Source: Patescibacteria group bacterium (lineage in GTDB: Bacteria > Patescibacteriota > Patescibacteriia > Veblenbacterales > UBA10138). Taken from it: a stretch of 64,000 nt of DNA. Below, piece by piece: positions 5,872-62,692 of this stretch (the stretch's first letter is position 1; every line of letters starts with the position of its first letter). The DNA lies in the NCBI GenBank assembly GCA_041645215.1, contig JBAZQK010000001.1, positions 54,091 through 118,090 of the forward strand. The letters run 5' to 3'. Made by a program: the position numbers and the translations under genes. The notes beneath the pieces were generated by a model, which made no database searches, was not told the origin of the DNA, and saw nothing but the letters and a program-made list of their open reading frames with translations.

Positions 5872-5998
5872 ACCATTAATTTAGCACAAAAGGTTAGAAT
5901 AGTGAATTAGGAATTAAGAATTAAGAAGCGAGAAGATAGGAAGGAACGTTTTAGAGCTATAGTTTTTATTCTTAATTCGCAATTCATGATTCTTAATT

Positions 5999-7384
5999 CT
6001 ATTTTCTTAAGGTCTGTCCTACTTGATTGACGGCAAAATCAATGGCTTGTTTTAAATCTACGCCGCCGGCCGCTTGTCGGATCATATTTTGAAAAATCTC
6101 TCGCATAATTTTGGATTTAGAGCCGTGGTACCAGCTTTTAGCCGTTAGCAGTTGTTTAGCTGGTTTTCCCAAGTCAATATCTTCCAGTTGTTTATTAATA
6201 AGACTGCGCAGAGCGGTTGGTTTTTGAGCAGAGGTAAGATATTTGTCCGCCACTTCAGATTTGGTGGTTACGTATTGAATAAAGTTCCAGGCTTCATTGG
6301 GGTGCTGGCTTTGTTTAGGAACGGTTTCCAGGTAGTAACTGGCATAATAGACTGGTTTGTCAGCGGCATCAATTTGGGGAAAATTAGCAACCCCGATGTT
6401 AATTTTGGGCGACAATGTTCGCAGTGTAGCTAAATCGCGCCAGTAGGCAAAAACAAAACCAATTTTACCGGCCGCGAACAATTGCCAGGCGTTGCTCTGG
6501 TCGCGCGACCAGGTATAAGTTTCTTTGCTGGGGTTGGCAAAATCAGTATAAAACCTTAGAGCATCGGCGCCCGGGAAAAAATCTTGGCCGCCAACTTTGA
6601 CCGCTTGGTTAAAAGTAGCGGCGGTGCCGGTGTTGTTAGTCATCGGCGTGCCGTTCTGCAGCATTAGAGCCGATAGAATATCATCCGAGTACGGCACATT
6701 GTCGGCTTCGCCCACGGCGGCGCCATGCTGGACAAAAAAACCACTTTTATCAAGTACGGTAATTTTTTGCGTAGCGTCTTTGAATTCAGTCCAAGTAGCC
6801 GGCGCGGTTGATATTTGGGCATTATTCAAAAGGTCGCGATTGTAAAATAACAACAACGTGTCAAGACTGATTGGCAGGCCGTAGGTTTTATTGTCAAAAA
6901 TTGCGTCACGGGCAACAACATCAACAAAAGTGTCAGTTAAAGCCTGGGGTTTAATGGTTGAGCTGGTTTTAAAATACCATTGAGCTTCTTTTTTAAATAA
7001 ACCTTTAATTTCAACAGACGGTAATTTTAAGCTGGCCGGTAATGGCGATAATTTGTCTAACCAGCCGCCCAGACTGGAGTTAGGCAAGGACACAATGTCG
7101 GGGCCGGTACCGGCCGCTAAAGCTTCCAGCAGTTTATTCTCTAATTCTTCCGCCCGCACAGTTTGAATATTGACACTTATGTTGGGTTGGCTGGTTTTGT
7201 AGTCCTTAATTATTTGATCAAAATTAGATTTTTCACCCTCAATTCGCCACCAATTTAAAGTTAGAGGTTGGGCCGCCTCTTTGGCTTTAGGGTCGCCACC
7301 CTTGCAACCCAGACCCAGCAGACTGCCGACTAATAAACCAGTCATTAAAATAATTAAACCACGGTGCGAGCGGAGGATACTCAT
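5999..7384 (-). CDS. ABC transporter extracellular solute-binding lipoprotein, family-1 sugar-binding type.
   Basis: Lipobox LLGLGC in the signal peptide. The 461-aa length and a Trp/Tyr-rich periplasmic binding-protein pattern fit the family. Confidence 0.55.
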   Translation of the reverse strand: MSILRSHRGLIILMTGLLVGSLLGLGCKGGDPKAKEAAQPLTLNWWRIEGEKSNFDQIIKDYKTSQPNISVNIQTVRAEELENKLLEALAAGTGPDIVSLPNSSLGGWLDKLSPLPASLKLPSVEIKGLFKKEAQWYFKTSSTIKPQALTDTFVDVVARDAIFDNKTYGLPISLDTLLLFYNRDLLNNAQISTAPATWTEFKDATQKITVLDKSGFFVQHGAAVGEADNVPYSDDILSALMLQNGTPMTNNTGTAATFNQAVKVGGQDFFPGADALRFYTDFANPSKETYTWSRDQSNAWQLFAAGKIGFVFAYWRDLATLRTLSPKINIGVANFPQIDAADKPVYYASYYLETVPKQSQHPNEAWNFIQYVTTKSEVADKYLTSAQKPTALRSLINKQLEDIDLGKPAKQLLTAKSWYHGSKSKIMREIFQNMIRQAAGGVDLKQAIDFAVNQVGQTLRK

Positions 7385-8247: not shown

Positions 8248-9018
8248 ACCCTTCTTACCGCAACTTCACTTGCCGTTGACCAACAAATAAAGCGATAATT
8301 TATAAAAAAATTTTAAAAACATAGTGATGATAACACCCTTTTACTTGTTGCCGGCATCAGGTTTGTTTAGTGGAATTGGCGGTACCGAGCATAAACTACT
8401 TTTACCTTAGCACAAAAAAGGTTAAAATAAAAGGTTGGGCGGCGGTTTTTAAACGAGCAAAACCGAGCTTAGTCGGGAAATCTACTAAAGCGGTTAATGG
8501 TATTGTGAAGCTCCGCGGCCTGCCCGCCGCTCGCCTCACCTAATTAACCGATTGTTATAAAGTTACAGTACTAATATTTATAGTTAGAGTTTATCTAAAA
8601 CATCAGCTTTGGCAGGCGGGCCTGCCCCGCTAAGCGGGCAGACGGTTTTATTAAATTACTAGATTATTTAATTAAAAATTGATTAAACCCGCCTGCCAAA
8701 GCCGCTATGCCAAATACGCTCGGGCTATAAATCAAGAGTGGCATAGTTTGGTGTCAGTTTATCTATCAGGCAAGGCGAGCGGCGGGCAGGAATTTAAAAT
8801 TTAAAATTGTTTACTAGTTGGGTATAGGCTTAGGCGGTTTCATTATTAACTTTTTAGTATGTAGACGTAAGTCCTAACATAGTCAATTAAGCGAAGCGTT
8901 AGCGGAGTTTAATGGCGGAGATGGAGGCCCCGCAGTAGGACTTCGCCCACTACGGGGTAAAGATTCTCACTTAGGTACAATTCCGTAATTATTGGTTTTT
9001 CTTGACCCCGTAACAGAG

Positions 9019-9105
9019 CGGAGGGGGTGGGATTTGAACCCACGATACCATTTCTGGTATAACGGTTTTCGAGACCGTCCGATTAAACCACTCTCGCACC
9101 CCTCC
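9019..9105 (-). tRNA. tRNA-Ser(CGA), type II with a long variable arm.
   Basis: The reverse complement folds with acceptor GGAGGGG/CCCCTCC, anticodon stem ACGGT/ACCGT with loop CTCGAAA, variable arm TATACCAGAAATGGTATC and T-arm GTGGGTTCAAATCCCAC. The ORF 8992-9246 is its antisense artefact. Confidence 0.8.
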
Positions 9106-9304
9106 GCTCTTGTACGGGGCGGGCCTGCGCCTTCAACCACCCACCGCTACGCGGGGCCCCGCCATAGGCGGTGGTCGGCCACCCTTCCGCACTTCTACGG
9201 GGCGAGACCAGCGCACTGCTTGTTCCGTATTTTTTTATGGTGCTGAAGGATCGCTTAATTATTAATAATGCTCACAGTATATTTGGCGCAGGCCTCATTG
9301 TCAA

Positions 9305-12009: not shown

Positions 12010-12762
12010 ATGTCTATTGACGCCAAAGAACTACAACAATTTGGGCTAACCGAGAAAGAATCCGCACTTTATTTAGCTGCCCTAGAACTTGGCAGTACTT
12101 CCATTAGCGACCTGGCTAGGAAATCACAGCTAAAGAGACCCACTACCTATTTAGTGGTAAACCAGCTTGAAGTTATGGGTCTTTTATCTCAAACAAGGAT
12201 AGGCAAAAGATTTTTTTATTCAGCAGCGCATCCCAGACGGCTAGTTGAAAGAGTTCGCTTTCGTGCCAATCGTGCCGAAGAAATGATGCCCGAGCTGGTC
12301 GCGCTGTGTAACAATTCCTCTAATAAACCGAGGCTTCAAGTCTTTGAAGGGCTAGAAGGTGTGAAGCTACTGTACCAAGAATTATACGAATCGCTGAATA
12401 ATAAACAGGAAGCGCTCTGGTTTGCTAACATAGGTGCCCTGCGTCAGTACGTGCCCGAAGCCATCACTGAATACAAGAAAATTCTCCGTAAAATTAAAAA
12501 TCCCAAAATCAGAGAACTCAACTGCGGCGATAAAGAAGGTAAACATTGGCTTGAAGAAACTAAATCATTTCGAGGGCCACGCCATCAGGTGCGTATATTG
12601 CCGCCTAATTTTGAGTTCGGCAGTACTGATAATCTTATACTGGGCAATAAGCTTGTTATATTTTCTCTAAAAGGAGATGTTTCGGTTATTGTAATTGAGA
12701 ACAAAGAGATCGCCTTAACTTATCGAACACTTTTCGAAGCAGCCTGGAGGTTAGGTAAGTAA
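12010..12762 (+). CDS. TrmB-family transcriptional regulator with an N-terminal winged HTH.
   Basis: FGLTEKESALYLAALELGSTSISDLARKSQLKRPTTYLVVNQLEVMGLL is the typical TrmB HTH. Confidence 0.7.
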   Translation: MSIDAKELQQFGLTEKESALYLAALELGSTSISDLARKSQLKRPTTYLVVNQLEVMGLLSQTRIGKRFFYSAAHPRRLVERVRFRANRAEEMMPELVALCNNSSNKPRLQVFEGLEGVKLLYQELYESLNNKQEALWFANIGALRQYVPEAITEYKKILRKIKNPKIRELNCGDKEGKHWLEETKSFRGPRHQVRILPPNFEFGSTDNLILGNKLVIFSLKGDVSVIVIENKEIALTYRTLFEAAWRLGK

Positions 12763-13032
12763 GTCTAAGCATACTATCTAAAGTGAGGCGCAGCTACGAC
12801 GAGATCTGGCGAAGCCATGACGGGATCCCGCCAGTTTTCTCCTACATTTGGAGCGGGTAGCCCCAGTAGAATGTGCTTCGCACCTCTACGGGGCGCGGCG
12901 GGAGTCCCGCAGTATAGGCTTTGCCTAACTACGGGATAAATCGAACCCGCGTGATGAGTTTGTCCCGCAGCGACGAGATGAACGAAGTGAATCCGTCCGG
13001 CTGCGAGGATCCCGTTGCGTTACACCGCACAG

Positions 13033-13103
13033 AGCGGGTAGGGGGAGTCGAACCCCCCTCATCGGCTTGGAAAGCCGAGGTAATACCGCTATACGATACC
13101 CGC
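13033..13103 (-). tRNA. tRNA-Gly(TCC).
   Basis: The reverse complement is GCGGGTATCGTATAGCGGTATTACCTCGGCTTTCCAAGCCGATGAGGGGGGTTCGACTCCCCCTACCCGCT. Anticodon stem TCGGC/GCCGA has loop TTTCCAA. Confidence 0.7.
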
Positions 13104-13611
13104 TCTGTGAGGACAACATATGGCGTGGTCCTCGAAAAATAAAGTCGCTGACACTCCAATTTTTCGGGAGAAAACTCACATAATGACCGTTACCCGCCTG
13201 CCCCGCTAAGCGGGGCCTGCCTAAGCTATATCCCCATGAAGTGATCTCATTAAATAAATACAAGTTGAACGTAGACGGTTTGTTAATTGTCCGAGGCGAG
13301 CGGCGGGCAGGTACGATACCCGCTCCAAATGTAGGATTTATGATTATAGGTGCGGGAGAAAACACCTAGAATTTAATTTATACGACATCCGCTTCGTGCG
13401 TATGAATAGCGGGATCCTAGAAAATTAGAGTCGTTGCGCTCCTTAATTCTTGGGAGAAAACCGACACCAGTCCGCCAAGGCCTGTGTCATATTAATCGCT
13501 CTTGATAATTGGATTAATAAAATTTTAATTGATTTGCCAATTGTGCAAGACTGATAGTGGTCGGGTATGATACCACACTTAATAATAACAAATAAACTAC
13601 AGTGGAGTCAT

Positions 13612-14157
13612 TTAATTGTTCGTGGCTTCAGGTTTTGCCACAAGGCTGTCCGTTTGGGTTTTTTGGGATTGCTCCCTTAATTGTTTAACCTGAGTAAGAA
13701 TCTGCGTTAGTTGTTGTTCCAAACTGTCGTAGGTTAAATTACCAACGGATGCAGGCTGGAGATTGGCGCGGTTGGCCAGACTGTCAGACAGCTCTTCCAC
13801 ATCTTCGGAAATTTCTCCCATGTCCTCTGATATTTCCTCTACATCCTCGGAAATCTCTTCAACTTCTTCTGTTAGTTCGTCAACATCCTCGGTAACTTCT
13901 TCAATATCCTCGGCCACGTCTTTTAGGGTGCGGGTTTGTTGGTTAACACTGTATTGAATGAAAATAGAAAGATAAATCGCTTCCAAAGATACAGCGGTAG
14001 TTAGAATCAACAGAACTTTTTCAGTGCTGACACCAAATCCAACCAAGGCCAAGCAGGCTATAAATAGCATAGTGTGGATTATGATTGATGATTTGGAGCC
14101 AATCCAAGTGGTAGCTTGACTGGTTCTTTGGTCAAATTTGGAGGGAGATACCGACAT
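13612..14157 (-). CDS. Membrane-anchored acidic heptad-repeat protein with a coiled-coil-like region.
   Basis: N-terminal TM helices, then EDIEEVTEDVDELTEEVEEISEDVEEISEDMGEISEDVEELSD, six or more near-perfect 7-residue repeats. Confidence 0.4.
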   Translation of the reverse strand: MSVSPSKFDQRTSQATTWIGSKSSIIIHTMLFIACLALVGFGVSTEKVLLILTTAVSLEAIYLSIFIQYSVNQQTRTLKDVAEDIEEVTEDVDELTEEVEEISEDVEEISEDMGEISEDVEELSDSLANRANLQPASVGNLTYDSLEQQLTQILTQVKQLREQSQKTQTDSLVAKPEATNN

Positions 14158-14733: not shown

Positions 14734-14931
14734 AGGTTTGGTGTCGCGCCCGAGCTACGACTATAACCACGCTTAGCGTGGTGGGTATTGGGAGTTGTCG
14801 TCCCTACGGGAGATCACCCGCCATTCGGCCTCAAGCTCATGGCCGGGAGGCAGGGTGAAACCTACGACCTGTCTGCTGTCCAGCGGGACGCGCTATTCTT
14901 AAACTGACTTTTAAAGAAATAAAACTTAGGT

Positions 14932-15008: not shown

Positions 15009-15161
15009 ATAAGTGTATTACAGTGAGTTGTTTATTTTACGCTGTAAAGTGTAATGGGACCTGTCCGATGTACATCGGACCGCGCTAGCCTCAACCAAAG
15101 GCTGATCCGCCTCTGGCGGAAACTGCGCCAATCCCCGATGAATGTATTACATTGTTAATTT

Positions 15162-15274: not shown

Positions 15275-15324
15275 GTAACCAATCCTCCTTGGGAGGACTG
15301 CTCTACCACTTGAGCTACGGACCC
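15275..15324 (-). pseudogene. Partial duplicate of the tRNA-Lys 5' half (acceptor 5' strand plus D-arm) fused to a non-tRNA hairpin.
   Basis: 27 nt, ctgctctaccacttgagctacggaccc, are identical to 15208-15234. They are followed by a tcctccttgggagga hairpin instead of an anticodon arm, with no T-arm or 3' acceptor. Confidence 0.5.
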
Positions 15325-15404
15325 ATGATTGGCTTGTAGCATATAGCTTATAGTAAATAGCGTGAGGGGTCTCTCACTATTAGCTATGTGCCATTAGCTA
15401 ATTT

Positions 15405-15460
15405 GCCCCGGAGGGATTCGAACCCCCAATAATCCCGCCGTGGCGGGACCGTGATATCAT
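15405..15460 (-). pseudogene. Partial tRNA-Arg-like copy with T-arm, 3' acceptor and D-loop similarity but no 5' acceptor strand.
   Basis: gccccggagggattcgaacccccaat is near-identical to the 3' part of the tRNA-Arg at 15548-15622, and gtgatatcat matches its D-region. No complementary 5' acceptor is present. Two hairpins separate the two copies. Confidence 0.4.
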
Positions 15461-16790: not shown

Positions 16791-16865
16791 ATGTTTAATC
16801 GATTAGTTAATTGTAGGACTTTCGCGTTTGAGCCAAGTTCGAGGCAAAACCGAGCATTTGAGCAA

Positions 16866-17035
16866 GCCGTAGTAAACCCCGTTACACCCCGTCCTGAAGG
16901 ACCGGGCATTTTTGGGGAAGATTTTTAATTTCCCATTCACCCCGTTAGAAGTCTCCACCGGCGGTGGAGTATCCCGACAGCCATTGGGATTACTTCTAAC
17001 GGGGCATTCTGGGTGTAACGGGGTTTACTACGGTG
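16866..17035. ncRNA. Candidate structured RNA or repeat element with three nested inverted repeats.
   Basis: The outer stem gccgtagtaaaccccgttacaccc (16866-16889) pairs with gggtgtaacggggtttactacggtg (17011-17035). Inside it ccccgttagaagt pairs with acttctaacgggg, and ctccaccggcggtggag forms a further palindrome. Confidence 0.35.
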
Positions 17036-17241
17036 AGCGAAAAGCCGAGGTTTTAACGAAGAAATTGGCCAAAGCCGCTTGCGGGGTCGGGCTGCGCCCG
17101 CCCCTAAAGCGGCAAGCGCGTAAGTCCTAAATTGTTTAAAAAATGAAATTCTCAACCGCAGCCCCGCCTTGGCGGAGCGAGGTATTTTGGCGAAGGAAGA
17201 TAACCGACCAATCAATTATAGCTAAAAAAGCAGGTTTTAGG

Positions 17242-17607: not shown

Positions 17608-17698
17608 ATTTTATTTTCCTTCGTTCCGCTAAGCGGGGCTTCGTCATAATACCCTCCCGATTCCGCCAGCCGGCGGACATCGGCCCAGGAGCTTCATA

Positions 17699-18757
17699 TT
17701 ATTGGTCAAAGCCGACAAGTTCCGGTTCAAGTTCAATTTTGACTCCTAATTTTTTATAGGCGGTTTTAATTATTTGTTCCGCCAAGGCCATAACGTCGTT
17801 CGCGGTTGCCCGGCCGGTGTTGAGAATCACCAACGGTTGTTTGGGGTTGATTTGCGCCCCCCGGTTAGTTAGGCCCTTAAAGCCCAGAGTTTCAATCAAA
17901 AAGGCCGTTGGCACTTTGATTTGCTGACCGTTGACGAGCTTGGCTTTGTCTAATAATTTGGCCAGATCGTCAGGCGTGAATTCTTTTTTAAAACCAGCTT
18001 TTAATTTGTTGTATTGCGGCTTAGTCAAATATAAATTTTTAAAAAATGACCCGGCACTGCCGCCTCTGGCCCTGGTGGGAAAGGGGTATTTACGATTTCG
18101 GATGTTTATGACGGCGGTTCTGATTTCTCTTAGGTTTGGTCGTTGAGTAAAATGTTTTTTTAAATCACTGTAGCGCAAATCAGGTCGGCCGTTTTTTAGC
18201 AGTTGCATGGTTAGCTCCAGGATGATATAGCGCCCCTTGGCCGTAGAGTTAAAGATGCTGGTACGGTAGCCAAAGCGGCACTGTCGTGAATTTATTATCC
18301 GGATGTCGCTGGTCTGCAAATCAAATACTTTGACGGTTTTTAAAACCCGGCTTAACTCCTGGCCATAGGCGCCAATGTTTTGTACTACGGCCCCGCCGGC
18401 CCGGCCGGGTATATGGGAAAGATTTTCTATGCCCCACAATCGGTTTTTGACGGCGAACTTAACAACATCGTCCCACTTTTCGCCCGCCGCAATCTGCAGC
18501 CAGTACTGATTGTTGGGCCGGCGCTGTAATTGAATGCCCCGCAGCCGCAAGTTTATAACCAGGCCGTTAAAACCGGCGTCGCTGACAACAATATTGCTGC
18601 CCCCGCCCAACACCCAGAGTTTTAATTGTTTTTGGCGCGCCCAAGCCACGGCTTGATTTAAGGCCGACAATTTATTGATGGTGATAAAAAATTTGGCTCG
18701 GCCGCCGATTTTAAAGGTTGTTAAAGGTTTTAACGGTTTGTTTTTTATAATTTTCAT
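17699..18757 (-). CDS. murB: UDP-N-acetylenolpyruvoylglucosamine reductase.
   Basis: FKIGGRAKFFITINKLSALNQAVAWARQKQLKLWVLGGGSNIVVSDAGFNGLVINL is the FAD-binding N-terminus of MurB. 352 aa with a C-terminal extension. Confidence 0.85.
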   Translation of the reverse strand: MKIIKNKPLKPLTTFKIGGRAKFFITINKLSALNQAVAWARQKQLKLWVLGGGSNIVVSDAGFNGLVINLRLRGIQLQRRPNNQYWLQIAAGEKWDDVVKFAVKNRLWGIENLSHIPGRAGGAVVQNIGAYGQELSRVLKTVKVFDLQTSDIRIINSRQCRFGYRTSIFNSTAKGRYIILELTMQLLKNGRPDLRYSDLKKHFTQRPNLREIRTAVINIRNRKYPFPTRARGGSAGSFFKNLYLTKPQYNKLKAGFKKEFTPDDLAKLLDKAKLVNGQQIKVPTAFLIETLGFKGLTNRGAQINPKQPLVILNTGRATANDVMALAEQIIKTAYKKLGVKIELEPELVGFDQ

Positions 18758-18892
18758 AATGTAGTTTGGCTTTTACCACGATTTCTTTCATACCTTTGAT
18801 TATATCAAACTAACAGTCCGGAGTCTCTCATTGTTAACATAAAACCCTCATTTGGAGAAGGGTTGAATGATGTCTCGTCAAACAAGGCAACC

Positions 18893-18970
18893 CGTATGAC
18901 GGGTTGGGGTGGCTAATGGGAATTGAACTCCCGTAATCGCTGCCACAGAGCGGTGTTCTACCATTGAACT
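18893..18970 (-). pseudogene. Degenerate partial copy of tRNA-His (D-arm to T-arm), overlapped by the stop-codon region of the Doc/Fic gene.
   Basis: ccgtaatcgctgccacagagcggtgttctaccattgaacta matches 21786-21826 of the intact tRNA-His apart from one substitution. The 5' acceptor is replaced and the last codons of the Doc/Fic ORF (RRLVQW*) are encoded within the D-arm sequence. Confidence 0.5.
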
Positions 18971-19377
18971 AACCGGCGTTTAATGAATTTTTCTATGTAT
19001 TTTACAGTTTCGTCTTTGGCTTCAGCCGGGCCTTGGGCTACCCAGAGAGCAAAATTATAAAGTTCGGTTTTGTCGGCTTTTAACCACTTGCCGTTTAAAT
19101 ACAAAAAAACCAACAAGGCAGTGACGGCTATTCGCTTATTGCCGTTTTGAAAAGGATGGTTTTTATTTAACAAATAAAATAGCATGGCCGCCTTGCTGAT
19201 TAGGCCATGGTAAAGATATTTTTTATCAAACTTTTGCCAAGGAACAGTCAGGCAGCTTTCCAAAACATTCGGATATCTGGTTGCAAAAGGCGGAATCGGT
19301 TCGTCCCAATTCATGGTTTTGGTGGTCAGGGTGTGGGCGGTGTATTTGATCATTTCCACTGAAATATTCTTAATCAT
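18958..19377 (-). CDS. Fic/Doc-family protein (death-on-curing type toxin/AMPylase-phosphotransferase fold).
   Basis: HPFQNGNKRIAVTA matches the Doc/Fic motif HxFx(D/N)GNKR. 139 aa. Confidence 0.7.
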   Translation of the reverse strand: MIKNISVEMIKYTAHTLTTKTMNWDEPIPPFATRYPNVLESCLTVPWQKFDKKYLYHGLISKAAMLFYLLNKNHPFQNGNKRIAVTALLVFLYLNGKWLKADKTELYNFALWVAQGPAEAKDETVKYIEKFIKRRLVQW

Positions 19378-19710: not shown

Positions 19711-20023
19711 ATCTAATTAAAACACAAAGCATTAATCATTCACGTTAAAAATTGGGAAGCTTGATTAAACAGCTTATTCCAAACAAAAAATTCTCCTTTG
19801 GGGGAGAGATTGTCTAATGGGTGGCTGAACGAATAGAAGTGGAAAACTTTATTGAAGTTTGGAACGTTGGTATTGACAGAAATATAAAAATAGTCTACAG
19901 TTATTTGTTCTTTAACAAAAGTTGTTTTTACTGATTTATAAATAAGTGGTGATCTGAGTTGTTTATTTATAATTTAGTAAAAACAACTAAATAATATCTA
20001 TCCACAAAAATAGGAGTACAACA

Positions 20024-21569: not shown

Positions 21570-21752
21570 AATAATATTATATAAGTGAAATTTCCTAGAG
21601 TCTGCTATTTATAGCGGACTCTCTTTTATTTTGGCAACTTAACAAGAGTTTGCCGTCTCAGGGTGGGGTACGAATTTTGTTAAAAATTGGGAAACTCAAT
21701 TCAGTAGCTTACCTAAAACAAAAAACTCTCTCTTGAAGGAGAGATTTTTCGA

Positions 21753-21827
21753 TGGGGTGAGTGAGGGGAATCGAACCCCCGTAACCGCTGCCACAGAGCG
21801 GTGTTCTACCATTGAACTACACCCACC
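21753..21827 (-). tRNA. tRNA-His(GTG) with G-1 and an encoded CCA.
   Basis: The reverse complement is G-GTGGGTGTAGTTCAATGGTAGAACACCGCTCTGTGGCAGCGGTTACGGGGGTTCGATTCCCCTCACTCACCCCA, anticodon loop CTGTGGC. Confidence 0.85.
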
Positions 21828-23351: not shown

Positions 23352-23740
23352 AGGTTTTATGTTAATGGTATTTAAGATGCTTATAAACTTTATTATAGCG
23401 CGAAAATTGGCAATGTCTAAAATTTAATGATTCGGTTTTTTTATTCTACTACTACTTTTACCTTTTTATCTTTGCAGTATTCTTGAATTAGTCCGAACCC
23501 CAGTAGTACCCTGCTAAGCGGGGACACGGGGCATAGCGCATTTCACTCTGCCAGTTGGAGGGCGAGCCTGCCTGCCGGCAGGCAGGGAAGTCCCCCCGCG
23601 AAAATTCGGAAAGGCGGCGGAGCCGCACCGCTGACAATTTCAAGTTTTTCTTTGGCGACAAATTCTTAAAATTTAATTTATTTGAGAGTAAAGGTACAAC
23701 CGTATTTATCGTCGTGCCAATTGTAATTACATCAAACATT

Positions 23741-24462: not shown

Positions 24463-24526
24463 GGTGCCTCGGGAGGAATTGAACCTACATCAGTGGCTTA
24501 GAAGTCCACAGTTCTATCTTCACCCC
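24463..24526 (-). pseudogene. Degenerate, D-arm-deleted copy of the adjacent tRNA-Arg.
   Basis: ggaggaattgaacctacatcagtggcttagaagtccacagttctatcttcacccc aligns with 24541-24600 of the intact gene with substitutions. The D-arm is missing and the acceptor strands are not complementary. Confidence 0.4.
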
Positions 24527-24606: not shown

Positions 24607-24714
24607 GATAAATAAAGGGGCAAGTTGTCCGCTCCGTCGTCGCTCCGTCATCGCTTCGCCAGATCTCGCAGAGCGACGACGGAGCGGGAAACTACGAGGG
24701 CATAGGGAAATGTA

Positions 24715-24850
24715 ACCCCAGTATATCAACTTCGCTAACAAAATTAGCGAGCGTGAGTCGAAAGACTGTTTAATAAATAAATGGTGATTTAACTTTGATT
24801 AATTTTACTGATTTTGTTAAGAGCGAGCTATAGCGAAGTAGTTATACTGG
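24715..24850. mobile_element. MITE-like element of family 'cccagtata' (copy 1 of 3), about 136 bp with terminal inverted repeats and no coding capacity.
   Basis: cccagtatatcaacttcgctaacaaaattagcgagc ... gagctatagcgaagtagttatactggg. Near-identical copies lie at 42279-42416 and, inverted, at 55338-55480. Confidence 0.5.
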
Positions 24851-24990
24851 GTAAAATTCAAAAATCTCCGCCCAAGGCGGATCTACCTAGGGTACGAAAA
24901 ATGTAAAATTATTTACAAATGTGTTTTATTTTTAAATTTGATAAGGGCTAATCAATTTTATTACTAATTTAAACTAAATTCAAGCTTATT

Positions 24991-25890
24991 TTAAGTGTAG
25001 CGTTTAGTGGTAATAATATTAGCGTGGCCCAGAGTTTGTTGGATATTTTTTATGGTGTTGCCTTGTTTTATAAGTTGATTGGCAAAAACGTGACGCAAGG
25101 TTGAGGGTGTAATTTTTTTATTCAGTCCAGCCGCCAAACGATAGTGTTTAATTATTCTTTGTAAGCTGCGAGGGGTTAAGGCAAAATTATGACGTTGCTT
25201 GCGCACGGGCGAGGTTTGAGCGCGATCATGACTAATGAATAAGGCTGGCTCGGTATCATGCCGCGCCTTTAGATAATTGTTTATAATATTTTTAATATTA
25301 GGCGGCAATGGTATTTGGCGTACCCGACCTTTAGTACGGCTGATCGTAATAAAATTTTCCTCCGCCTTAAGCGCGTTACGTTGCAGGTGGGACAATTCGG
25401 AAACTTTTAAACCCGCCGCCACCAATAAATTTAAAATCGCTAAGTCGCGTTTTTTTATTAATTCACTATCTTGGCTTTGTTCACAAAATTTAATCATTAA
25501 ATTAACCTCGGCCGCGCTGACCGCCGGTAAAATGATTGAACGCAGTCGCTTTAACGACAAGTTGGTATAGTCAGGCACCGGAATGCCGGTTTGTGACAGG
25601 TATTTTAAAAAAGCCCGCAGTCCGATTAAATAATAATTTTGCGTGGCCGGCGACAAGTTGTGCCCGCTATTGGAGGTGGATTGCTTAAGCCAGGCCTTAT
25701 AGTTTTCCAAGTGCTGGCCGGTGAGGTCGCTGGCTTTATCAAGTTTAACCCGGGCCTGGTCCGACCATTGCCGGAATTTATTCAGATAAATGCGGTAATT
25801 GGATGCCGACGATTGGCTCAACTGGCGCTTAAGTTTAAGCGTTTGCAGAAAATTGTTTATGGTTTCGTTTAAACCAGCCGGGTTCGCCAT
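24991..25890 (-). CDS. Tyrosine-type site-specific recombinase (phage-integrase/XerCD family).
   Basis: C-terminal ...TLRHVFANQLIKQGNTIKNIQQTLGHANIITTKRYT carries the R...H..R..Y catalytic tetrad. The N-terminal SAM-like domain reads YRIYLNKFRQWS. Confidence 0.8.
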   Translation of the reverse strand: MANPAGLNETINNFLQTLKLKRQLSQSSASNYRIYLNKFRQWSDQARVKLDKASDLTGQHLENYKAWLKQSTSNSGHNLSPATQNYYLIGLRAFLKYLSQTGIPVPDYTNLSLKRLRSIILPAVSAAEVNLMIKFCEQSQDSELIKKRDLAILNLLVAAGLKVSELSHLQRNALKAEENFITISRTKGRVRQIPLPPNIKNIINNYLKARHDTEPALFISHDRAQTSPVRKQRHNFALTPRSLQRIIKHYRLAAGLNKKITPSTLRHVFANQLIKQGNTIKNIQQTLGHANIITTKRYT

Positions 25891-34242: not shown

Positions 34243-34428
34243 CGGTTGGAATTAGAATTAAGAATTAAGAATTGCGAATTAAGCCACCCTATGGGTGGTC
34301 ACCCGAAAGGTGAAATCAAGAATTTAGGAGCACTTAATCCCCCTGAACACTTTAACACTTAAACAAATTTGAGCCAGTGATTAAGTGATCTAGTGTTCCA
34401 GTGTTCTCGTGTTTCAGTGTTATAGTGA

Positions 34429-41084: not shown

Positions 41085-42242
41085 ATGCCTTTTCAAGGCC
41101 ACTTTAATTTAGGCGGCTTATTGCCGCAGCGTTTGTCGCCGCAGGTTAAGGCGCTGTACTGGTCGGCGGTGCTGCAAAATTTGGCGCTCGGTATGCTGTT
41201 GCTGTTTGAGCCGATTTATTTATGGCAACAAGGCTTTGGTTTGGCCGGCATAATGAAATTTTTCCTAGCCGTTTACACGGTATATTTTTTCTTGGCGCCG
41301 CTGGGGGCTAATTTTGCCACCCGGCGCGGGTTTGAAAATTCAATTTTCCTGTCAACGATTTTTCAGTTTATTTATTATGTCTGTTTGTTTTTAATTGCTC
41401 AAAGTTGGTATTGGGCCATACCGGCCGTGGCGCTTTACGCTTTGCAAAAAAGTTTTTACTTTCCAGCCTATCACGCTTACTTTGCCCGTTATTCGGATGA
41501 AACCGAAGAAGGCCGTGAGGTTGGCGGCATGTCCGTGTCGCTGGCGCTGGTTTATGTGGCCGGACCATTGCTGGCCGGTTTTTTGCTGACTTTTGGCTCC
41601 TGGTTTTGGTTGTTTTTGGCAGGCGGGTTAATTTTATTGTCGTCCAATTGGCCCTTGTTGCGCCATCGGCCCGAGTTTACGCCGCGCCAATTTCCTTATG
41701 GGGCGGCCTATAAGCGAATTTTCGCGCCGGTCCTGCGCCGCCCGTTGCTGGCGGGCTTAGGTTTTGGCGAGGAGCTGATTTTTATGACTTTGTGGCCGGT
41801 GTTTATGTATGTGCTGGTGGTTAATTACGCCACGGTCGGTATTTTTGTGGCTGTTTCAACACTGATTATGGCTATAGTTACCTTGTATGTCGGCCGGCTT
41901 ACCGATACCAGTAACAAAAAAACGGTTTTGCGGGTTTCGGTGTTATTTAATCAATTGGGTTTACTCGGCCGTTTAATTGTGAGTTCGCCGTTTTTAATTT
42001 TTTTGGTTGATGCCTGGACGCGCGTTACGCATAGTATGATTATTGTGCCGATTTACGCTGTAACTTACCAGCGCGCCAAGCATCAGTCGTCAATGGATAC
42101 GGCCGTATTTTTTGAAATGACTTTGAGTTTGGGTAAAATTTTGGCGGCGTTGATACTGTTAACTATTTTTACAGTTACAACCAGTTGGGGCGCGATTTGG
42201 CTGGTGGCGGCGTTAATGGCGATTTTATACGCGGCGCTGTAG
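41085..42242 (+). CDS. Polytopic membrane transporter, MFS-like.
   Basis: 385 aa with about 11 TM helices. It has an MFS-like pattern but no exact signature motif. Confidence 0.45.
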   Translation: MPFQGHFNLGGLLPQRLSPQVKALYWSAVLQNLALGMLLLFEPIYLWQQGFGLAGIMKFFLAVYTVYFFLAPLGANFATRRGFENSIFLSTIFQFIYYVCLFLIAQSWYWAIPAVALYALQKSFYFPAYHAYFARYSDETEEGREVGGMSVSLALVYVAGPLLAGFLLTFGSWFWLFLAGGLILLSSNWPLLRHRPEFTPRQFPYGAAYKRIFAPVLRRPLLAGLGFGEELIFMTLWPVFMYVLVVNYATVGIFVAVSTLIMAIVTLYVGRLTDTSNKKTVLRVSVLFNQLGLLGRLIVSSPFLIFLVDAWTRVTHSMIIVPIYAVTYQRAKHQSSMDTAVFFEMTLSLGKILAALILLTIFTVTTSWGAIWLVAALMAILYAAL

Positions 42243-42278
42243 GGAAAATGAATAAAGAATTACGAATCAAGAATTAAG

Positions 42279-42416
42279 CCCAGTATAACTACTTTGTTAT
42301 AGCTCGCTTTTAAAATAAAATTTATAAATCAAATAAGTAACCTATCTAATCATTATCTCTTATTAGTTACTTAATCTAAGCTCGCTAAATTTTATTTAAC
42401 AAAGTTGTTATACTGG
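42279..42416. mobile_element. MITE-like element of family 'cccagtata' (copy 2).
   Basis: cccagtataactactttgttatagctcgctttta ... aagctcgctaaattttatttaacaaagttgttatactggg. The terminal inverted repeats are about 35 bp. Confidence 0.5.
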
Positions 42417-42548
42417 GTAAGAATAGAACATCTAAATTCTAAAACCTAAATTTTATAAATAATACTCAACAGCCAATTAATAACTCAAAAGTTAAATATC
42501 AAAATGAAAAATTTTTATTTTTGATTTTTACATTTTAAATTTTTTATC

Positions 42549-43421
42549 ATGTCTCTTCCTTCTAGTCTTTTAGCTTGGACCAAACAATTGGTTAAGCAGT
42601 ATAATCTTCGTCCCGGTCGCCGGTTGGGGCAGCATTTTTTAATTGACCGCCAAGTATTAGAGCAGATTATGGCGGCGGCCGAATTAAAACCAGCAACTCC
42701 GGTTTTGGAAGTTGGCGGTGGTTTAGGGGCGTTAACCCTGTCATTATTAAATACCACTCCCCGTTTAACTGTCGTAGAGTTGGATAAAAATTTAGCGCCG
42801 CTGTTGCAAAAACTGGGGTTGGCTGCTGAACATTTTAAAGTTATTAGTGGTGATATTTTAAAAGTCAGTGACAAAGTTTTACAACAGTCGCTTAGTCTTG
42901 AGCCTGATGATGATTTTTATATAGTGGCTAACTTGCCCTACGAAATTTCCGGGGCTTTTTTGCGGCGATTTTTATCCGGCGTCTGGCGACCAGAGATTAT
43001 GGTGTTGTTATTGCAAGCGGAAGTAGCCGAACGTTTGGTGGCTAAACCAGGAGAAGTAAGTTTATTAACCCTGCAAGCTTGGTTGGCAGCTGAAGTAAAA
43101 ATAATAAAAAAAGTTAGACCAAGCTCATTTTATCCGCCGCCGCGAGTTAACTCTGCGATTGTTAAATTTAAGCTGCGTACAGTAGAGGAACGAATCGCTT
43201 TACTAAGTGGCCTAAGTGAGGAATATTTTTGGCAAGTGGCTAAGGCCGGATTTACTGCCCGACGAAAATATTTAATTAGCAATTTACATCGCCAGCTTAA
43301 GTTTGATAAATCAAAATTGATTGAGATTTTTAAAAAACTTGATATTCCGCTTTCGGTCCGGGCGCAGGAGCTGTCTTTGGAGCAGTGGGCGGAGTTAGCC
43401 GGAGGGTTGAATAAAGAATAG
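42549..43421 (+). CDS. rsmA: 16S rRNA (adenine1518/1519-N6)-dimethyltransferase.
   Basis: LGQHFLIDRQVLEQI...VLEVGGGLGALT...VANLPYEISGAFL are the KsgA/RsmA signature motifs. Confidence 0.9.
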   Translation: MSLPSSLLAWTKQLVKQYNLRPGRRLGQHFLIDRQVLEQIMAAAELKPATPVLEVGGGLGALTLSLLNTTPRLTVVELDKNLAPLLQKLGLAAEHFKVISGDILKVSDKVLQQSLSLEPDDDFYIVANLPYEISGAFLRRFLSGVWRPEIMVLLLQAEVAERLVAKPGEVSLLTLQAWLAAEVKIIKKVRPSSFYPPPRVNSAIVKFKLRTVEERIALLSGLSEEYFWQVAKAGFTARRKYLISNLHRQLKFDKSKLIEIFKKLDIPLSVRAQELSLEQWAELAGGLNKE

Positions 43422-43734
43422 CGAATTACGAATCACGAATGCAGAATTAGGATTATTGTAATTCCCTTTTTGGCATTCATTTATTTGACATTGAATTGGC
43501 ATTTGTTATTTGAAATTTGATATTACTGGTTCCTGTGTCATTCTGAAGCCGATGTCCATCGGCTGAAGAATCTAGATCCTTCACCCCACCAAGGGCGGGG
43601 TTCAGGATGACAAAAGCGTAAGTCCTATCAGTATTTTTTGTTCTTTGACTTTTCGCTACTTCCGTGCTATAATTAATGTACTTATTAAGAAAAATTTGTA
43701 AATTTTATCCAGTTTATTTGGCTGTTCAACCAAT

Positions 43735-44579: not shown

Positions 44580-47500
44580 GTGTTTCCATCAGTCAAAAAA
44601 GGTTCTAAATTAAAGCGTTTGGTTGCCGCCCTGGCAATTGGTTTGGCAATGCTGACTATGGCCACGCCGGCTTTGTTAACTCCGCGGCCGGCGCAGGCGC
44701 AATTTACTGACGTTGCTAACTTAGCAGTTAACACTGGTAAGTGGATATGGGAAAGAATGGTAGAGGTTGGTGACTGGGTTTATAAACATGGCGCGGCCAT
44801 AGCTTTTCGTAACGCCGCCCGGACTTTTACGCAAAAAATCGCTTATGACTCGGCTAATATGTTAGCCTCGGGCGGCCAAGGCCAGACTCCTTTATTTACT
44901 TGGAAAAATTTAGGCAAATCAATTTCTGATGCCGGTGATGAGGCCGCCGGCAGTTTTTTGGACGGCATTGCCTCGGGCGGGGTGTGGGGTAAGTTTAATA
45001 TTTGCGAACCAACCGGACCCAACGCGCCCTTTGCCAAATTAATGATAACTATGCCGGCGTTTAATTTAAATTTAAGCGGTGCTTACAAACCCATTAAGCC
45101 GCGCTGTACCCTGTCTAAATTTAAAGACAACTGGAACAAAGTTTTAAACGACCCCGAGGCTAAAAAAACTTTTCTAAAAGATTTTTCGGTTGTGTTTGAT
45201 CCTAAACAAAGTGAGTTAGGTGTGGGGTTGAATGTGCAAACCAACTTGGTCAAGGAAATTGAACTAAAAAAATATTTAGCAGAAAAAAATGCTACCGCCA
45301 GCGGCGGCATTTTGCCAATCACGCAAACCATTACTCAATTTATTAAAACGCCGGCGCCGCGCATTGAGCGGGCCGCCAATATGACAACCGAGCAGGCCTT
45401 AAAAGAACCACTGGTGTTTACCGGTGATATTCTGGCTGACGCTTTAGGTGTTTTTACCAATACTTTAGCGGCTAAGTTAATGAAGCGGTTAACACAGGGT
45501 GATATTCCCAATCCGGCCGGCATAGGGCCGTCATCATTGTTTGGCGCGGCTTATGGGGCCAGCGGGGTGGAGTATGCGCAAGCCATTAATGCCACGCTTT
45601 TAACCGCCCCTTTGGCCGGCGGCGATGTGTTGGATATGATCAGTGAATTTTCCGGCTGTCCCAGCGATACCCAGTACGCGGCCATAAATAATTGTACAAT
45701 CAACAGTAAATTTGAGCAGGCCTTGCGCAAAGCCGAAGACGGTAACGCGTTAACGGTTAAAGAGGCTATTAACAAAGGCTTAATTAGCGGCGGCTGGGTG
45801 TTTAAGCAAGAAAAACCGCAAAATGTTCGCTTGCCCGATGCTTGGTACTTGTCTGATATTAAAAAGTTGCGTTTGGCCCGTATTTTACCGTTGGGTTGGG
45901 AATTGGCAGTACAAAAAGTGTCTGGCCAGGATGTGAGTTTGAATGATGTGATGAACGGATTCACTGATACCAAAAGTCCGTATTATCATTTGATTGACCC
46001 CAACTGGATATTAAAGGCGCCGCTGTCGCAGTGCCGCCTTAGGGGCCCCGGGCAAATTATACAATCGGCCGGTGGAACGCGTAATGACACTTGCGTTGAT
46101 ACCCAAAGTTGTATCGCCGAAGATGAAGACGGTACTTGTTCGGCCTGGGGCTACTGCACCAAAGATAAAAATATCTGGCGCCTGGGGGGCGATAGTTGTG
46201 AATTTCCCAAAGGCTCGGGCGTCTCACCCTATGCCTCCTGCCAAACCTTTACCGCGCCCGGCGGCAACAGTGTTTCTTATTTGCAGAATTCACTGGCTAA
46301 TTTTGACGACGGAGTTTGCAGCGGGGCGGTCGGCTGCAGGTGGTATTCAACCTTGTTTAATAGTTCGCCGTCGGCTACTTCCGCCAATCGTTATTTGTTA
46401 ACTAAACCGCCTTTATATTTAAAGAATTTAGATAAATTAACTTGCGATGCCGCTAACGAAGGTTGTACTAAATTTTTGCGGCTTACTAATATAAACGCCG
46501 TCGCTTTAGGCAGTGTGGCGGGCGCTAATCCGGCGGAAAAAGTGGTTAATCAGGTGATAAACAGCAGCGACACTTATGATAAATATGCTCAAGTTCAATC
46601 AGTAACTTTAAAATCCGCCCCGGTCCAGTTTAAATGTTATGACACTGACGCCGGCGGTAAGCTTATTACTGGCAATGATTCGCCCGAGTGTAAAAATTAT
46701 TTAAACCTGTGCCGCGCCAATGAGGTTGGTTGCGATCTTTATACGCCCAAGGACGGCTCGCCGGCTATACCGGGAGTATTTGAACCAACTAACACTTGCC
46801 CGGCGCAGTGTGTTGGTTATCAGGTTTACCAACAACAACCGACATTTTTTGAAAAAAATCCAACTCCAGCGCAATATTTTATTCCCGCGACTGCCCAAAA
46901 ATGTTCAGCCACCGCCGTGGGTTGCGAAGAGTTTACCAATGTCAGCCAAAATGAACAGCGTGAATATTATAGCCAATTGCGGCAGTGCATTAAACCGGGG
47001 GCCAAAGCCGCGACTTATTTTACCTGGGTTGGGTCGGAATTAACCGGTTATCAATTAAAACGGTATAGTTTAAAATCATCGTCGGCCTCTTCTTTGGCGG
47101 CGCCGGCCACCACCGATAGTTCCGGCGATTGTCGTCCGAGCGGCTCGGCGCAATATCCCACGGCCGACCCGGATTGCAAACAATTTTATGATGTAGCGGG
47201 TAATGCCCATTATCGTAATTTATCAGTAACCATTACCGCTTCCGACCAGTGTACGCGTTACCGCGCCACCAATGTTAGTAAAACTGATTGTATTGGTGCT
47301 AGTGGTGTCAGCGGCGTTGGCGGCACTGGCGGCGAATGGGACGCGACAGTTGAAAAATGTTTTTACAACGCCATACCCCAAGAAGGCCAGATGTGCAATG
47401 CTTCGCAAGTTGGTTGTCGCGAGTATAAGGGGCCAACCGGTGACAATGTAAAATTGGTTTTCCCCATATCAACTTTTGGCGACAATGACGCCAAGACCAA

Positions 47501-55174: not shown

Positions 55175-55335
55175 AATGATAATTAATGTAAATATCAAAA
55201 ATCAAAATGCCTATTATAACTCAAAAGTCAAAAGTAAAAGCTTCGCTTTTAGTAGTTTTGCGATTTTCATGCCCGAGGCAGATCCGCCTTTGGCGGAGAC
55301 TTTTAACTTTTGACTTAAATTTAATATTTACATTT
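55175..55335. repeat. 'gatatttacatttt' family repeat element with a central ccgcctttggcgg hairpin and no cargo.
   Basis: The left end is aatgtaaatatcaaaaatcaaaatg...ctcaaaagtcaaaagtaaaag. The centre is ggcagatccgcctttggcggag. The right end is cttttaacttttgacttaaatttaatatttacatttta, the inverted complement of the left end. Confidence 0.45.
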
Positions 55336-55337
55336 TA

Positions 55338-55480
55338 CCCAGTATAACTACTTCGCTACAACTCGCTTTTAACAAAATTAGTGCAATTAATATATTAATC
55401 AGATTTAAATTATCATTTATTTACTAAACAGTCTGTCAACTCACGCTCGTTAATTTTGTTAGCGAAGTTGATATACTGGG
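55338..55480. mobile_element. MITE-like element of family 'cccagtata' (copy 3, inverted relative to copy 1).
   Basis: cccagtataactacttcgctacaactcgcttttaacaaaattag ... taattttgttagcgaagttgatatactggg. Confidence 0.5.
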
Positions 55481-55495
55481 TTTAAATTTCCTGTC

Positions 55496-60539: not shown

Positions 60540-60599
60540 AATTATGAATCAAGAATTAGGAATTAAGAATAATACAGCAAAAATAAAAACATTTACAGT

Positions 60600-61001
60600 A
60601 TGGAAACTCAAAACTCAAATCGCAAAAGTCAAAACCACAACGTAAAAGCTAAAAGTGATTTAAAACACAGATGTTATTATTATTCCATTAATATCATTAA
60701 GTTTTTAAAAACCCTGCCTAATGATAAAGTATACTGGAGCATATCAGACCAGCTATTAAGGAGTGCCACTAGTATTGGAGCCAATGTAATTGAGGCAAAA
60801 TCAGCCAGTTCCAGAAGAGATTTCATTAAATTTTATGACATTGCCCTAAAGAGCGCCAATGAAACCAAATATTGGTTAGCCTTAATGAGAGACGCTCTTG
60901 GCATAACCGCAATCCAGGTTAATCCTTTGTTGATTGAAGTTGAAGAACTATCTAATATTTTAGCCGCCAGCTTGTTAACCTTAAAGAACAAAAGACAATG
61001 A
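60600..61001 (+). CDS. Four-helix-bundle protein (23S rRNA intervening-sequence protein/Avd-like family), divergent copy.
   Basis: LLRSATSIGANVIEAKSASSRRDFIKFYDIALKSANETKYWLALMRD matches the family core (compare the copy at 62693). It is flanked by the inverted repeat caaaaccacaacgtaaaag / cttttgcgttgtggttttg. Confidence 0.65.
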   Translation: METQNSNRKSQNHNVKAKSDLKHRCYYYSINIIKFLKTLPNDKVYWSISDQLLRSATSIGANVIEAKSASSRRDFIKFYDIALKSANETKYWLALMRDALGITAIQVNPLLIEVEELSNILAASLLTLKNKRQ

Positions 61002-61017
61002 TTTTTACTTTTGCGTT

Positions 61018-62647: not shown

Positions 62648-62692
62648 AATGACAAAATAGAATTACGAATACCGAATCATGAATAGCGAATT

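Follow-up and report, generated by a model that had tools for sequence, protein, structure and literature searches.

The stretch of DNA analysed here (the window: 64,000 nucleotides (nt), positions 54,091 to 118,090 of contig JBAZQK010000001.1) contains two blocks without genes other than tRNA genes, block A (8290-9300) around tRNA-Ser(CGA) and block B (12780-13500) around tRNA-Gly(TCC), which share several sequence modules and are the subject of this study. The window encodes type IV pilins, PilT, MurB, glycosyltransferases, and a conjugation-like cluster, a gene content typical of a cell of the Patescibacteria or candidate phyla radiation (CPR), and its DUF948 protein has an exact counterpart in a metagenome-assembled genome (MAG) of a Patescibacteria group bacterium, followed by relatives in MAGs of Candidatus Kerfeldbacteria (62-64% amino-acid identity). 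The genome belongs to the Patescibacteria (CPR) and is related to Candidatus Kerfeldbacteria. The window has eight tRNA genes, all of them minus-strand and located at 9-25 kb. In a first-pass annotation the blocks were described as GC-rich modules in otherwise AT-rich DNA, which is overstated for a window of ~44% GC and correct for the spacers between the modules. Protein coding in the blocks can be set aside, since the overlapping open reading frames (ORFs; 8992-9246 and 12925-13365) match no Pfam family, as is also the case for the ORF at 23488-23739, and Rfam returns only tRNAs in the blocks, in agreement with the description of both blocks as gene-free. The sequences used for comparison, all of them metagenome assemblies, include the syntenic locus of a Kerfeldbacteria MAG (L077), further relatives (L078, L079, and L082), and strain variants (L003, L004, and L006).

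Aligned with L077, block B is an older tRNA-Gly gene, intact in L077, that lies here in four pieces as a result of three insertions, one of which is a copy of a repeat element, E, together with a hairpin, H1 (CCCCGCTAAGCGGGG):

13312-13336, minus strand: old tRNA-Gly piece 1, leader TCCTACATTTGGA plus GCGGGTATCGTA, in the right inverted-repeat arm
13193-13311, plus strand: E copy B, 119 nt long together with its H1 hairpin (13196-13220), placed in the old tRNA-Gly D-loop
13170-13192, minus strand: old tRNA-Gly piece 2, TAACGGTCATTATGTGAGTTTTC, D-loop to anticodon C35, from the L077 alignment
12963-13169, minus strand: 207-nt cassette with TCCCG...CGGGA ends, carrying the present tRNA-Gly(TCC) at 13032-13103, from the L077 alignment
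12941-12962, minus strand: old tRNA-Gly piece 3, CAAACTCATCACGCGGGTTCGA, anticodon C36 to T-loop, from the L077 alignment
12861-12940, minus strand: 80-nt insert with two GC hairpins and two CTACGGG(G/A) motifs, in the T-arm of the old tRNA-Gly
12821-12860, minus strand: old tRNA-Gly piece 4, CTACCCGCTCCA plus trailer AATGTAGGAGAAAACTGGCGGGATCCCG, in the left arm, identical to the L077 3' end and trailer
12801-12815, plus strand: GAGATCTGGCGAAGC module, with an inverted copy at 24653-24667 in an 18-bp-stem hairpin upstream of tRNA-Arg(TCT)
13143-13428: 286-nt segment missing in L004 and L006, with an imperfect direct repeat of ~45 nt at its two boundaries (13134-13180 / 13420-13466)

When joined, the four pieces (13336-13312, 13192-13170, 12962-12941, and 12860-12821) give the L077 tRNA-Gly with its leader and trailer, apart from one substitution and the absence of CTCCCG, six nucleotides of the T-arm, and ARAGORN calls tRNA-Gly(TCC) on them once these six are restored; the old copy is therefore taken to be a dead, interrupted gene. 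The corresponding D-loop site of L077 is unbroken, with GGGTATCATA directly followed by TAACGG, and so is its anticodon loop, whereas the 207-nt cassette is placed exactly between C35 and C36 in the window. At the T-arm spot, L077 has another, different insert. The present tRNA-Gly is a different allele from the old gene, with a short leader/trailer pairing of its own. A group I intron in the anticodon loop is not supported: no Intron_gpI match was obtained at E <= 10 in 12700-13700, and the insert holds a complete tRNA instead.

This arrangement also accounts for a long-range inverted repeat that the first-pass annotation had noticed on either side of tRNA-Gly and that is indeed present (20-21 nt, 12839-12859 / 13317-13337). 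The acceptor of tRNA-Gly is recognisable in its arms, where the tRNA 5' end is copied at 13312-13325 and 12849-12859 is the reverse complement of TACCCGCTCCA, the acceptor 3' strand plus CCA. The intact L077 gene has the leader TCCTACATTTGGA and the trailer TCCAAATGTAGGAGAAAACTGGCGGGATCCCG, exactly those of the window arms, and the inverted repeat is the leader/trailer helix of the old tRNA-Gly, formerly an extended acceptor helix, with its arms now 476 nt apart. Between L077 and L082 this helix differs by three compensatory changes and no uncompensated one, a pattern that would suit a helix used in RNA processing as well as a mobile tRNA cassette with inverted ends. The flanks of tRNA-Gly are compact in L078, L079, and L082, so accretion at this gene is lineage-specific. 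Old and new alleles alternate among genomes, with the 3' half and trailer of the window's live tRNA-Gly forming a pseudo-fragment in L077. Furthermore, window 12941-13029 (trailer of the cassette tRNA plus old piece 3) is identical to L077 2071-2159 at 89/89 positions, despite the ~62% amino-acid identity of the adjacent DUF948 protein, pointing to recent horizontal spread or strong constraint.

Block A can be resolved in a similar manner, into two inverted E copies around H1, remnants of an older tRNA-Ser, and a stray tRNA 3' end:

8519-8620, minus strand: E copy A-left, 102 nt, 5' CCCGCCTGCC ... GGCGGGCAGG 3' (nhmmer, 73 bits)
8620-8641, plus strand: hairpin H1 (GCCTGCCCCGCTAAGCGGGCAG) between the inverted E copies
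8688-8790, plus strand: E copy A-right, 103 nt, found with the E profile
8913-8957, minus strand: hairpin CCCCGTAGTGGGCGAAGTCCTACTGCGGGG followed by CCTCCATCTCCGCCA, the 3' end plus CCA of a superseded tRNA, as read from the sequence
9004-9121, minus strand: present tRNA-Ser(CGA) at 9018-9105, with complementary leader (9106-9121) and trailer (9004-9017)
9122-9204, minus strand: 5' part of an older tRNA-Ser (GGAAGGGTGGCCGA and GTGGTTGAAGGCGCAGGCC) plus leader, recognised by a 25-nt, 88% duplicate of the tRNA-Ser 5' end and leader
9276-9304, minus strand: promoter-like TTGACA-17-TATACT upstream of the old tRNA-Ser remnant, 11/12 consensus positions, a consensus match only

The two E copies stand head to head around H1 and form a near-perfect palindrome of 272 nt, with a predicted fold of -125 kcal/mol (z = -9.3) for 8500-8810; contigs of two other assemblies end at 8614/8615, at its centre. 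The leader and trailer of tRNA-Ser extend its acceptor stem by 14 bp (9006-9026 vs 9099-9119, 90%). A 34-nt double hairpin (9141-9174) sits in the D-loop of the old tRNA-Ser, and its removal restores, as read from the sequence, a canonical class-II D-arm. Hairpins of the CCCCGTAG...CTACGGGG type precede both the tRNA 3' end at 8913-8957 and the old tRNA-Gly end in block B.

Most of the shared modules reported by the first-pass annotation were recovered. The hairpin sequence common to both blocks is identical over 19/19 positions (GCCTGCCCCGCTAAGCGGG, 8620-8638 vs 13196-13214), and it recurs as claimed elsewhere in the window, at 17624, 23509, and 30998 and additionally at 9142 and 14767; with up to two mismatches, its 15-mer gives 11 strand-matches against 0.12 expected. 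The GAGGCGAGCGGCGGGCAGG module and its complement occur at 8519(-), 8772(+, one mismatch), and 13293(+), i.e., three times against 0.01 expected, and the segment given as gcctgcccgccgctcgcctc is the end of E copy A-left. The recurrence of GAGATCTGGCGAAGC in inverted form near tRNA-Arg was likewise found, at 12801(+) and 24653(-). However, CTACGGGG, said to occur six times, has four exact copies (8950, 9195, 12886, and 59968), and this motif alone is not significant (1.57 expected; 7/100 shuffles reach four).

The E profile recovers ten copies at seven loci (three in the window, five in L060, one in L038, and one in L205/L206). They keep a constant length (99-103 nt) and invariant ends (CCCGCCTGCC...GGCGGGCAGG), which pair over 9 bp, around an AT-rich, diverged interior. 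E is thus a small non-coding element with terminal inverted repeats, as are miniature inverted-repeat transposable elements (MITEs), and its copies are, as in MITEs, dispersed and variable in presence: E is absent at the L077 site and lies inside the 286-nt strain indel. In L205/L206, it is found between PrgI and TraC-like genes at a site free of tRNAs, where the window has a different cassette. In the alignment of E, none of the 12 predicted pairs shows a change on both sides (covariation term -0.06). A conserved RNA fold is therefore rejected, as only the invariant terminal helix pairs and no compensatory change is seen, in contrast to what a new structured-RNA family would show; the exception, outside E, is the tRNA-Gly leader/trailer helix. 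Invariant complementary ends, constant length, and a diverged interior without covariation indicate a mobile repeat rather than a folded RNA. Integron attC sites were rejected, given that E copies have no R''/R' core motifs. In viral contigs, the 14-base E-end pattern gave at least 120 matches, none of which fits the E profile, so they are attributed to chance.

H1 and CCGCC-N3-GGCGG hairpins are intergenic palindromes present far above chance. Scans for H1 in one genome per species and in JGI metagenomes yielded 68 external loci in many phyla. A tRNA-specific role of H1 is rejected, and the tRNA association proposed for the shared modules does not hold, since ARAGORN finds a tRNA within 1 kb at only 1 of the 68 loci (L031), E also occurs at a tRNA-free site, and the window copies of H1 at 17624, 23509, and 30998 have no adjacent tRNA. 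Variants of H1 break the stem without compensation (CCCTGC..GCGGGG and CCCCAC..GCGGGG), and in L019 H1 lies inside a variable region of 23S rRNA. Neither H1 nor CCGCC-N3-GGCGG has the GTAG head of repetitive extragenic palindromes (REPs); the CCCCGTAG...CTACGGGG hairpins contain GTAG, and only three to four copies of them were seen. Clustered regularly interspaced short palindromic repeats were ruled out because the repeats are irregularly spaced. A phage origin was rejected: no viral contig matched H1, the pseudo-tRNA hairpin, or the conserved trailer of tRNA-Gly, and the 19-mer GAGGCGAGC had a single match.

The same hairpin, 19-20 nt long (GCCTGCCCCGCTA(A/C)GCGGGG), recurs across phyla in very different settings (L019, L022, L036, L045, L049, L051, L057, L065, L069, L010, L047, and L031). 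At L019 1119-1137 it lies within the variable region of 23S rRNA; on one contig of ~55% GC it forms the centre of three copies of a REP-like repeat of unrelated sequence; it is found in conserved intergenic hairpin clusters of Bacteroidales; and in L031 (820-1720) it stands 25 nt upstream of tRNA-Leu among hairpins that contain GGATCC. Heptamer tracts of GGAACTT or TTTGAAA stand beside H1 in the CPR-like contigs L026, L062, and L064. The window itself has intergenic tracts with a 7-nt period (GAATTAA / GAATTAC / GAATCAA) in both orientations:

5893-6005, 34250-34294, 42239-42282, 43405-43448, 59759-59802, 60528-60585, and 62654-62702: 7-nt periodic tracts

A further palindrome, P, measures 43-66 nt with inverted ends of 12-13 nt and has a window copy at 16939-17004. 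It interrupts two of the five E copies of L060, where TAAAC is duplicated at P and single in the uninterrupted copies, and CATTC stands on both sides of the window copy. On this pattern, P in L060 reads as a bona fide insertion with a 5-nt target duplication. Palindromes are nested at 16846-17054, with the 66-nt P inside an inverted repeat with 44-nt arms (16846-16889 / 17011-17054), and L038 11966-12144 matches parts of this region at 92-97%. A separate repeat of ~150-260 nt with MITE-like ends (CCCAGTATA.C.ACTTCGCTA...) has copies that are 80-90% identical, at 24706-24911, 55253-55491 (inverted), 42271-42433, and L060 5245-5398, one of them upstream of tRNA-Arg(TCT). E, H1, the CCGCC-N3-GGCGG hairpins, and P are dispersed, strain-variable intergenic repeats common to other CPR genomes. 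The first-pass conclusion that the modules are a repeat family rather than random spacer is upheld, as they belong to families that other CPR contigs share. The literature searched, both for this hairpin and for insertions in tRNA genes of CPR, gave nothing specific, and to our knowledge the repeat family has not been described.

Remnants of tRNA genes are not restricted to the two blocks. Seven of the eight window tRNAs have a partial copy of themselves nearby, and the copies in direct repeat comprise 30 nt for Lys (100%), 26 nt for Arg-TCG (100%), 25 nt for Ser (88%), 19 nt for Pro (89%), and 14 and 10 nt for Gly. Partial copies occur likewise in the syntenic tRNA clusters of L077, L078, and L082, and pseudo-tRNAs flank nearly every tRNA across these four related genomes:

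Window, 15290-15327, 15403-15460, 15040-15155, 14866-14895, 24467-24518, and 18905-18971: pseudo-tRNA copies
L077, 1-345 and 925-1000: pseudo-tRNA copies
L078, 1868-1945, 2041-2110, 2183-2212, 2344-2400, and 2925-3000: pseudo-tRNA copies
L082, 4280-4350: pseudo-tRNA copy

In superseded copies of tRNA-Pro, -Phe, -Lys, and -Arg in the four genomes, the anticodon arm is a GC-rich palindrome, mostly TCCCG...CGGGA (e.g., TCCCGCTGGACAGCGGGA, TCCCGATGAACATCGGGA, GTCCCGCCACGGCGGGAT, and TCCGCCTAAGGCGGA), which often keeps the anticodon at its centre, while both flanks remain tRNA-specific. The substitute hairpin of pseudo-tRNA-Pro changes in a compensatory manner (TCCCGTTGGACAGCGGGA vs GTCCGATGTACATCGGAC). 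Insertions occupy the D-, anticodon-, and T-loops of old tRNA copies. We know of no mechanism for converting an anticodon arm into a palindrome. As a separate observation, the window and L077 have a highly conserved spacer downstream of tRNA-Pro (window 14734-14931; L077 265-505), a pseudo-tRNA whose T-loop carries a ~65-nt GC-hairpin insert, and L078 2307-2405 is uninterrupted and ends in CCA.

Such sites differ between strain variants. L004 carries a 115-nt insertion at the 3' end of tRNA-Pro, made up of a 94-nt GC-hairpin insert and a perfect 21-nt direct repeat that runs from the T-loop to the CCA end. In L003, 1.4 kb of DNA is present in addition to the window sequence (17846-19281; a VTT-domain protein, a 62-aa ORF, and an asparaginase fragment), bounded by a ~70-nt direct repeat that is single in the window (19783-19852); the site adjoins the pseudo-tRNA-His at 18905-18971, and window 19744-19821 resembles the sequence downstream of the live tRNA-His (21679-21756) at 76%.

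The reading favoured here, at a probability of roughly 0.65, is that the blocks are composite DNA scars at tRNA genes, composed of old tRNA debris, small palindromic repeats, and a replacement tRNA. An older tRNA copy would be superseded by an incoming one, either as a cassette with its own flanks or through an att-like (attachment-site) partial duplication, and the superseded copy would then decay and collect insertions. Non-autonomous palindromic DNA elements would insert at both blocks and elsewhere; these may be of the MITE/REP kind and land preferentially in gene-free DNA and tRNA-like loops. It also appears that tRNA genes were replaced repeatedly by incoming copies in this lineage. The modules common to both blocks would then be shared because the same elements inserted at both loci, and not because they act with the tRNAs. 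The insertions, empty sites, polymorphisms, and dispersal are direct observations, and the enzymology suggested for them is uncertain. The original observation of shared modules is partly confirmed, being real and far above chance, while its interpretation finds only partial support and needs replacing.

Several points weigh against this reading. The E insertion in the tRNA-Gly D-loop has no target-site duplication relative to the empty L077 site, and the anticodon-loop cassette has neither a target duplication nor an att-like identity block. No transposase domain was found among the window proteins or in the neighbouring annotated contigs, and the 64-kb window has no transposase gene, be it REP-associated tyrosine transposase (RAYT; a Y1 HUH transposase) or IS605-type. 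The 89/89 identity with L077 next to a DUF948 protein of ~62% identity looks selected, as do the compensatory changes (n = 3) of the tRNA-Gly leader and trailer, which do not resemble junk, and pseudo-tRNA copies are kept at the same positions in four genomes. Lastly, copy numbers and insertion preferences were drawn from ~64 kb of genome and a few related contigs and are accordingly not genome-wide.

The strongest competing explanation, albeit an unlikely one, is that the blocks are purely integrase scars, namely, serial attL/attR remnants of phages or integrative elements whose interiors were lost, or att-flanked miniatures resembling cis-mobilizable elements that are mobilised in trans by a tyrosine recombinase. 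The making of partial tRNA genes by integrating elements is a general prokaryotic phenomenon and the documented general source of tRNA fragments (PMC9897764). Inserts bracketed by direct repeats of tRNA segments, with one tRNA kept intact each time, are what it predicts, and they were found: the L004 repeat of 21 nt is perfect and matches the classical T-loop sublocation, the others measure 10-30 nt, and breakpoints fall in the anticodon loop and T-loop. Moreover, the sole recombinase gene of the window, a XerC/D-like tyrosine recombinase of the Phage_integrase family (24991-25890, minus strand), lies ~400 nt upstream of tRNA-Arg(TCT), which has a 13-bp leader/trailer helix; 17 nt after this tRNA, a second tRNA-Arg(TCT) is represented by its 3' part only, 52 nt with CCA. 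However, this recombinase looks like the housekeeping XerC/D type, and the inserts are merely 58-207 nt long, non-coding, and without an integrase. Several duplications span tRNA 5' ends, and neither the C35/C36 cassette nor the E insertion is joined to its flanks by an identity block. Sites without tRNAs carry E, H1, and P as well, and P gives a 5-nt target duplication, unlike integrases.

Also unlikely is a bolder proposal in which the tRNA genes of this Kerfeldbacteria-like CPR lineage would themselves be mobile, a possibility to which the anticodon-arm palindromes, the insertions in loops, and the compensatory changes of the tRNA-Gly helix lend some weight. A complete tRNA with inverted leader and trailer would insert site-specifically into the resident gene for the same tRNA and take its place, as at C35/C36 of tRNA-Gly, and a dedicated mechanism would then place GC hairpins in D-, anticodon-, and T-loops and convert anticodon arms into TCCCG...CGGGA palindromes. 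If true, this would be a loop-targeting mobile system acting on tRNA genes and resembling intervening sequences (IVSs), and a dedicated mechanism for loop-targeted insertion and anticodon-arm conversion would amount to new mobile-element biology centred on tRNA genes.

It is improbable that the modules are functional RNA co-transcribed with the tRNAs, either as processing or stability signals (RNase III stems) or as small RNAs, which is close to the structured RNA assumed in the first-pass annotation. Folding predictions give structures of very high stability (z = -9.3 and -9.95), yet DNA inverted repeats yield equal fold scores. Acceptor extensions by leader and trailer (14 bp for tRNA-Ser, 13 bp for tRNA-Arg-TCT, and 13 bp for the ancestral tRNA-Gly), the three double changes in the tRNA-Gly helix between L077 and L082 and those in the pseudo-tRNA-Pro hairpin, the 89-nt stretch that is 100% conserved between species, and the strong promoter-like site upstream of block A all speak for such a role; a mobile cassette, however, would equally be expected to show compensatory change in its terminal inverted repeats. 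The modules stand in both orientations relative to the tRNAs, occur at tRNA-free sites, and vary between near-identical strains, and the tRNA-Gly genes of L078 and L079 do without any of them. E pairs only through its invariant ends, and H1 variants break the stem rather than compensate. Rfam 15, at gathering and at permissive thresholds, recovered only tRNAs in the window, both blocks, and the tRNA cluster, with other best matches at chance level, and on 20 external H1 loci it gave one 23S rRNA and one tRNA only.

Finally, it is extremely improbable that the nested duplications are assembly artefacts, produced by tandem chaining of strain variants or by chimeric joining at short repeats. In favour of this, every sequence comes from a metagenome assembly, contigs of other assemblies end within the blocks (at 8615, 9082, and 12817), and strain heterogeneity is found at exactly the same places. 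Against it, both blocks are present in L003, which was assembled independently and is 99.9% identical over 17.8 kb, L006 (JGI) and L004 (ENA) agree on the short variant of block B, and other species sampled by other projects (L077, L078, and L082) show homologous nesting.

Elsewhere in the window, a single ORF of 3441 aa occupies 44580-54905. The conjugation-like cluster (PrgI, TraC-like, and TraG) includes genes for PF05635 "23S rRNA intervening-sequence protein" (bAvd-like), the first of which is bracketed by a 60-nt inverted repeat (60595-60654 / 61002-61061); L205 and L206 have an E element in place of the window's second one:

Window, 60600-61001, 61533-61904, and 62693-63079: PF05635 genes
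L204, 4337-4519 and 5419-5790: PF05635 genes

Long "structured" spacers at CPR tRNA genes can be layered records of tRNA replacement and small mobile palindromes. This affects CPR annotation, as pseudo-tRNAs, false ORFs, and contig breaks arise at such spacers. The repertoire of E, H1, P, and CCGCC-N3-GGCGG is common to different species and turns over within populations of supposedly streamlined organisms.

Four known systems invite comparison, namely, I) att remnants, II) MITE/REP repeats, including the bacterial interspersed mosaic elements (BIMEs), III) 23S rRNA IVSs, and IV) disrupted archaeal tRNAs. As for the first, partial tRNA genes (attL/attR remnants) reportedly arise from integrative elements in tRNA genes, as described by Reiter in 1989 and Williams in 2002 and reviewed in PMC9897764. 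The blocks share with them a tRNA kept intact beside partial copies, direct repeats of tRNA sequence, breakpoints in the anticodon loop, T-loop, and 3' end, and a 21-nt repeat in L004 that fits the classical picture; unlike them, they have 58-207 nt rather than kilobases between complete and partial copies, no integrase inside, common duplications of the 5' end, and a complete tRNA cassette placed cleanly in the anticodon without an identity block. Elements such as Correia elements, REPs, and Rickettsia palindromic elements resemble the repeats described here in being short and non-coding, with complementary GC-rich ends and dispersed intergenic copies, and in their nesting, presence or absence between strains, inverted pairs (block A is BIME-like), and, for P, a 5-nt target duplication. 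RNA genes, too, are among the insertion sites of Rickettsia palindromic elements. The differences are that no cognate transposase or RAYT was found in the window, that H1 has no GTAG head, and that E shows no target duplication at the only site with an empty-site comparison.

The IVSs of 23S rRNA are, similarly, hairpin-closed insertions in loops of structured-RNA genes that vary sporadically between strains; H1 lies within the L019 23S rRNA, and the window encodes three PF05635 proteins. Their hosts differ, as tRNA genes do not tolerate excision without religation, and the interrupted copies here seem dead and replaced by a second copy. Archaeal multi-intron, split, and permuted tRNAs are likewise broken at the D-loop, anticodon loop, and T-arm, with GC-rich complementary flanks. 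Here, in contrast, the host is bacterial, no bulge-helix-bulge motifs or splicing endonuclease were identified, an intact replacement gene lies inside one "intron", and the exons do not rebuild a tRNA, since the T-arm of the old tRNA-Gly is short by six nucleotides. The blocks therefore combine known kinds, tRNA-gene integration scars and MITE/REP-like repeats, neither of which has been described in such a form for this CPR lineage.

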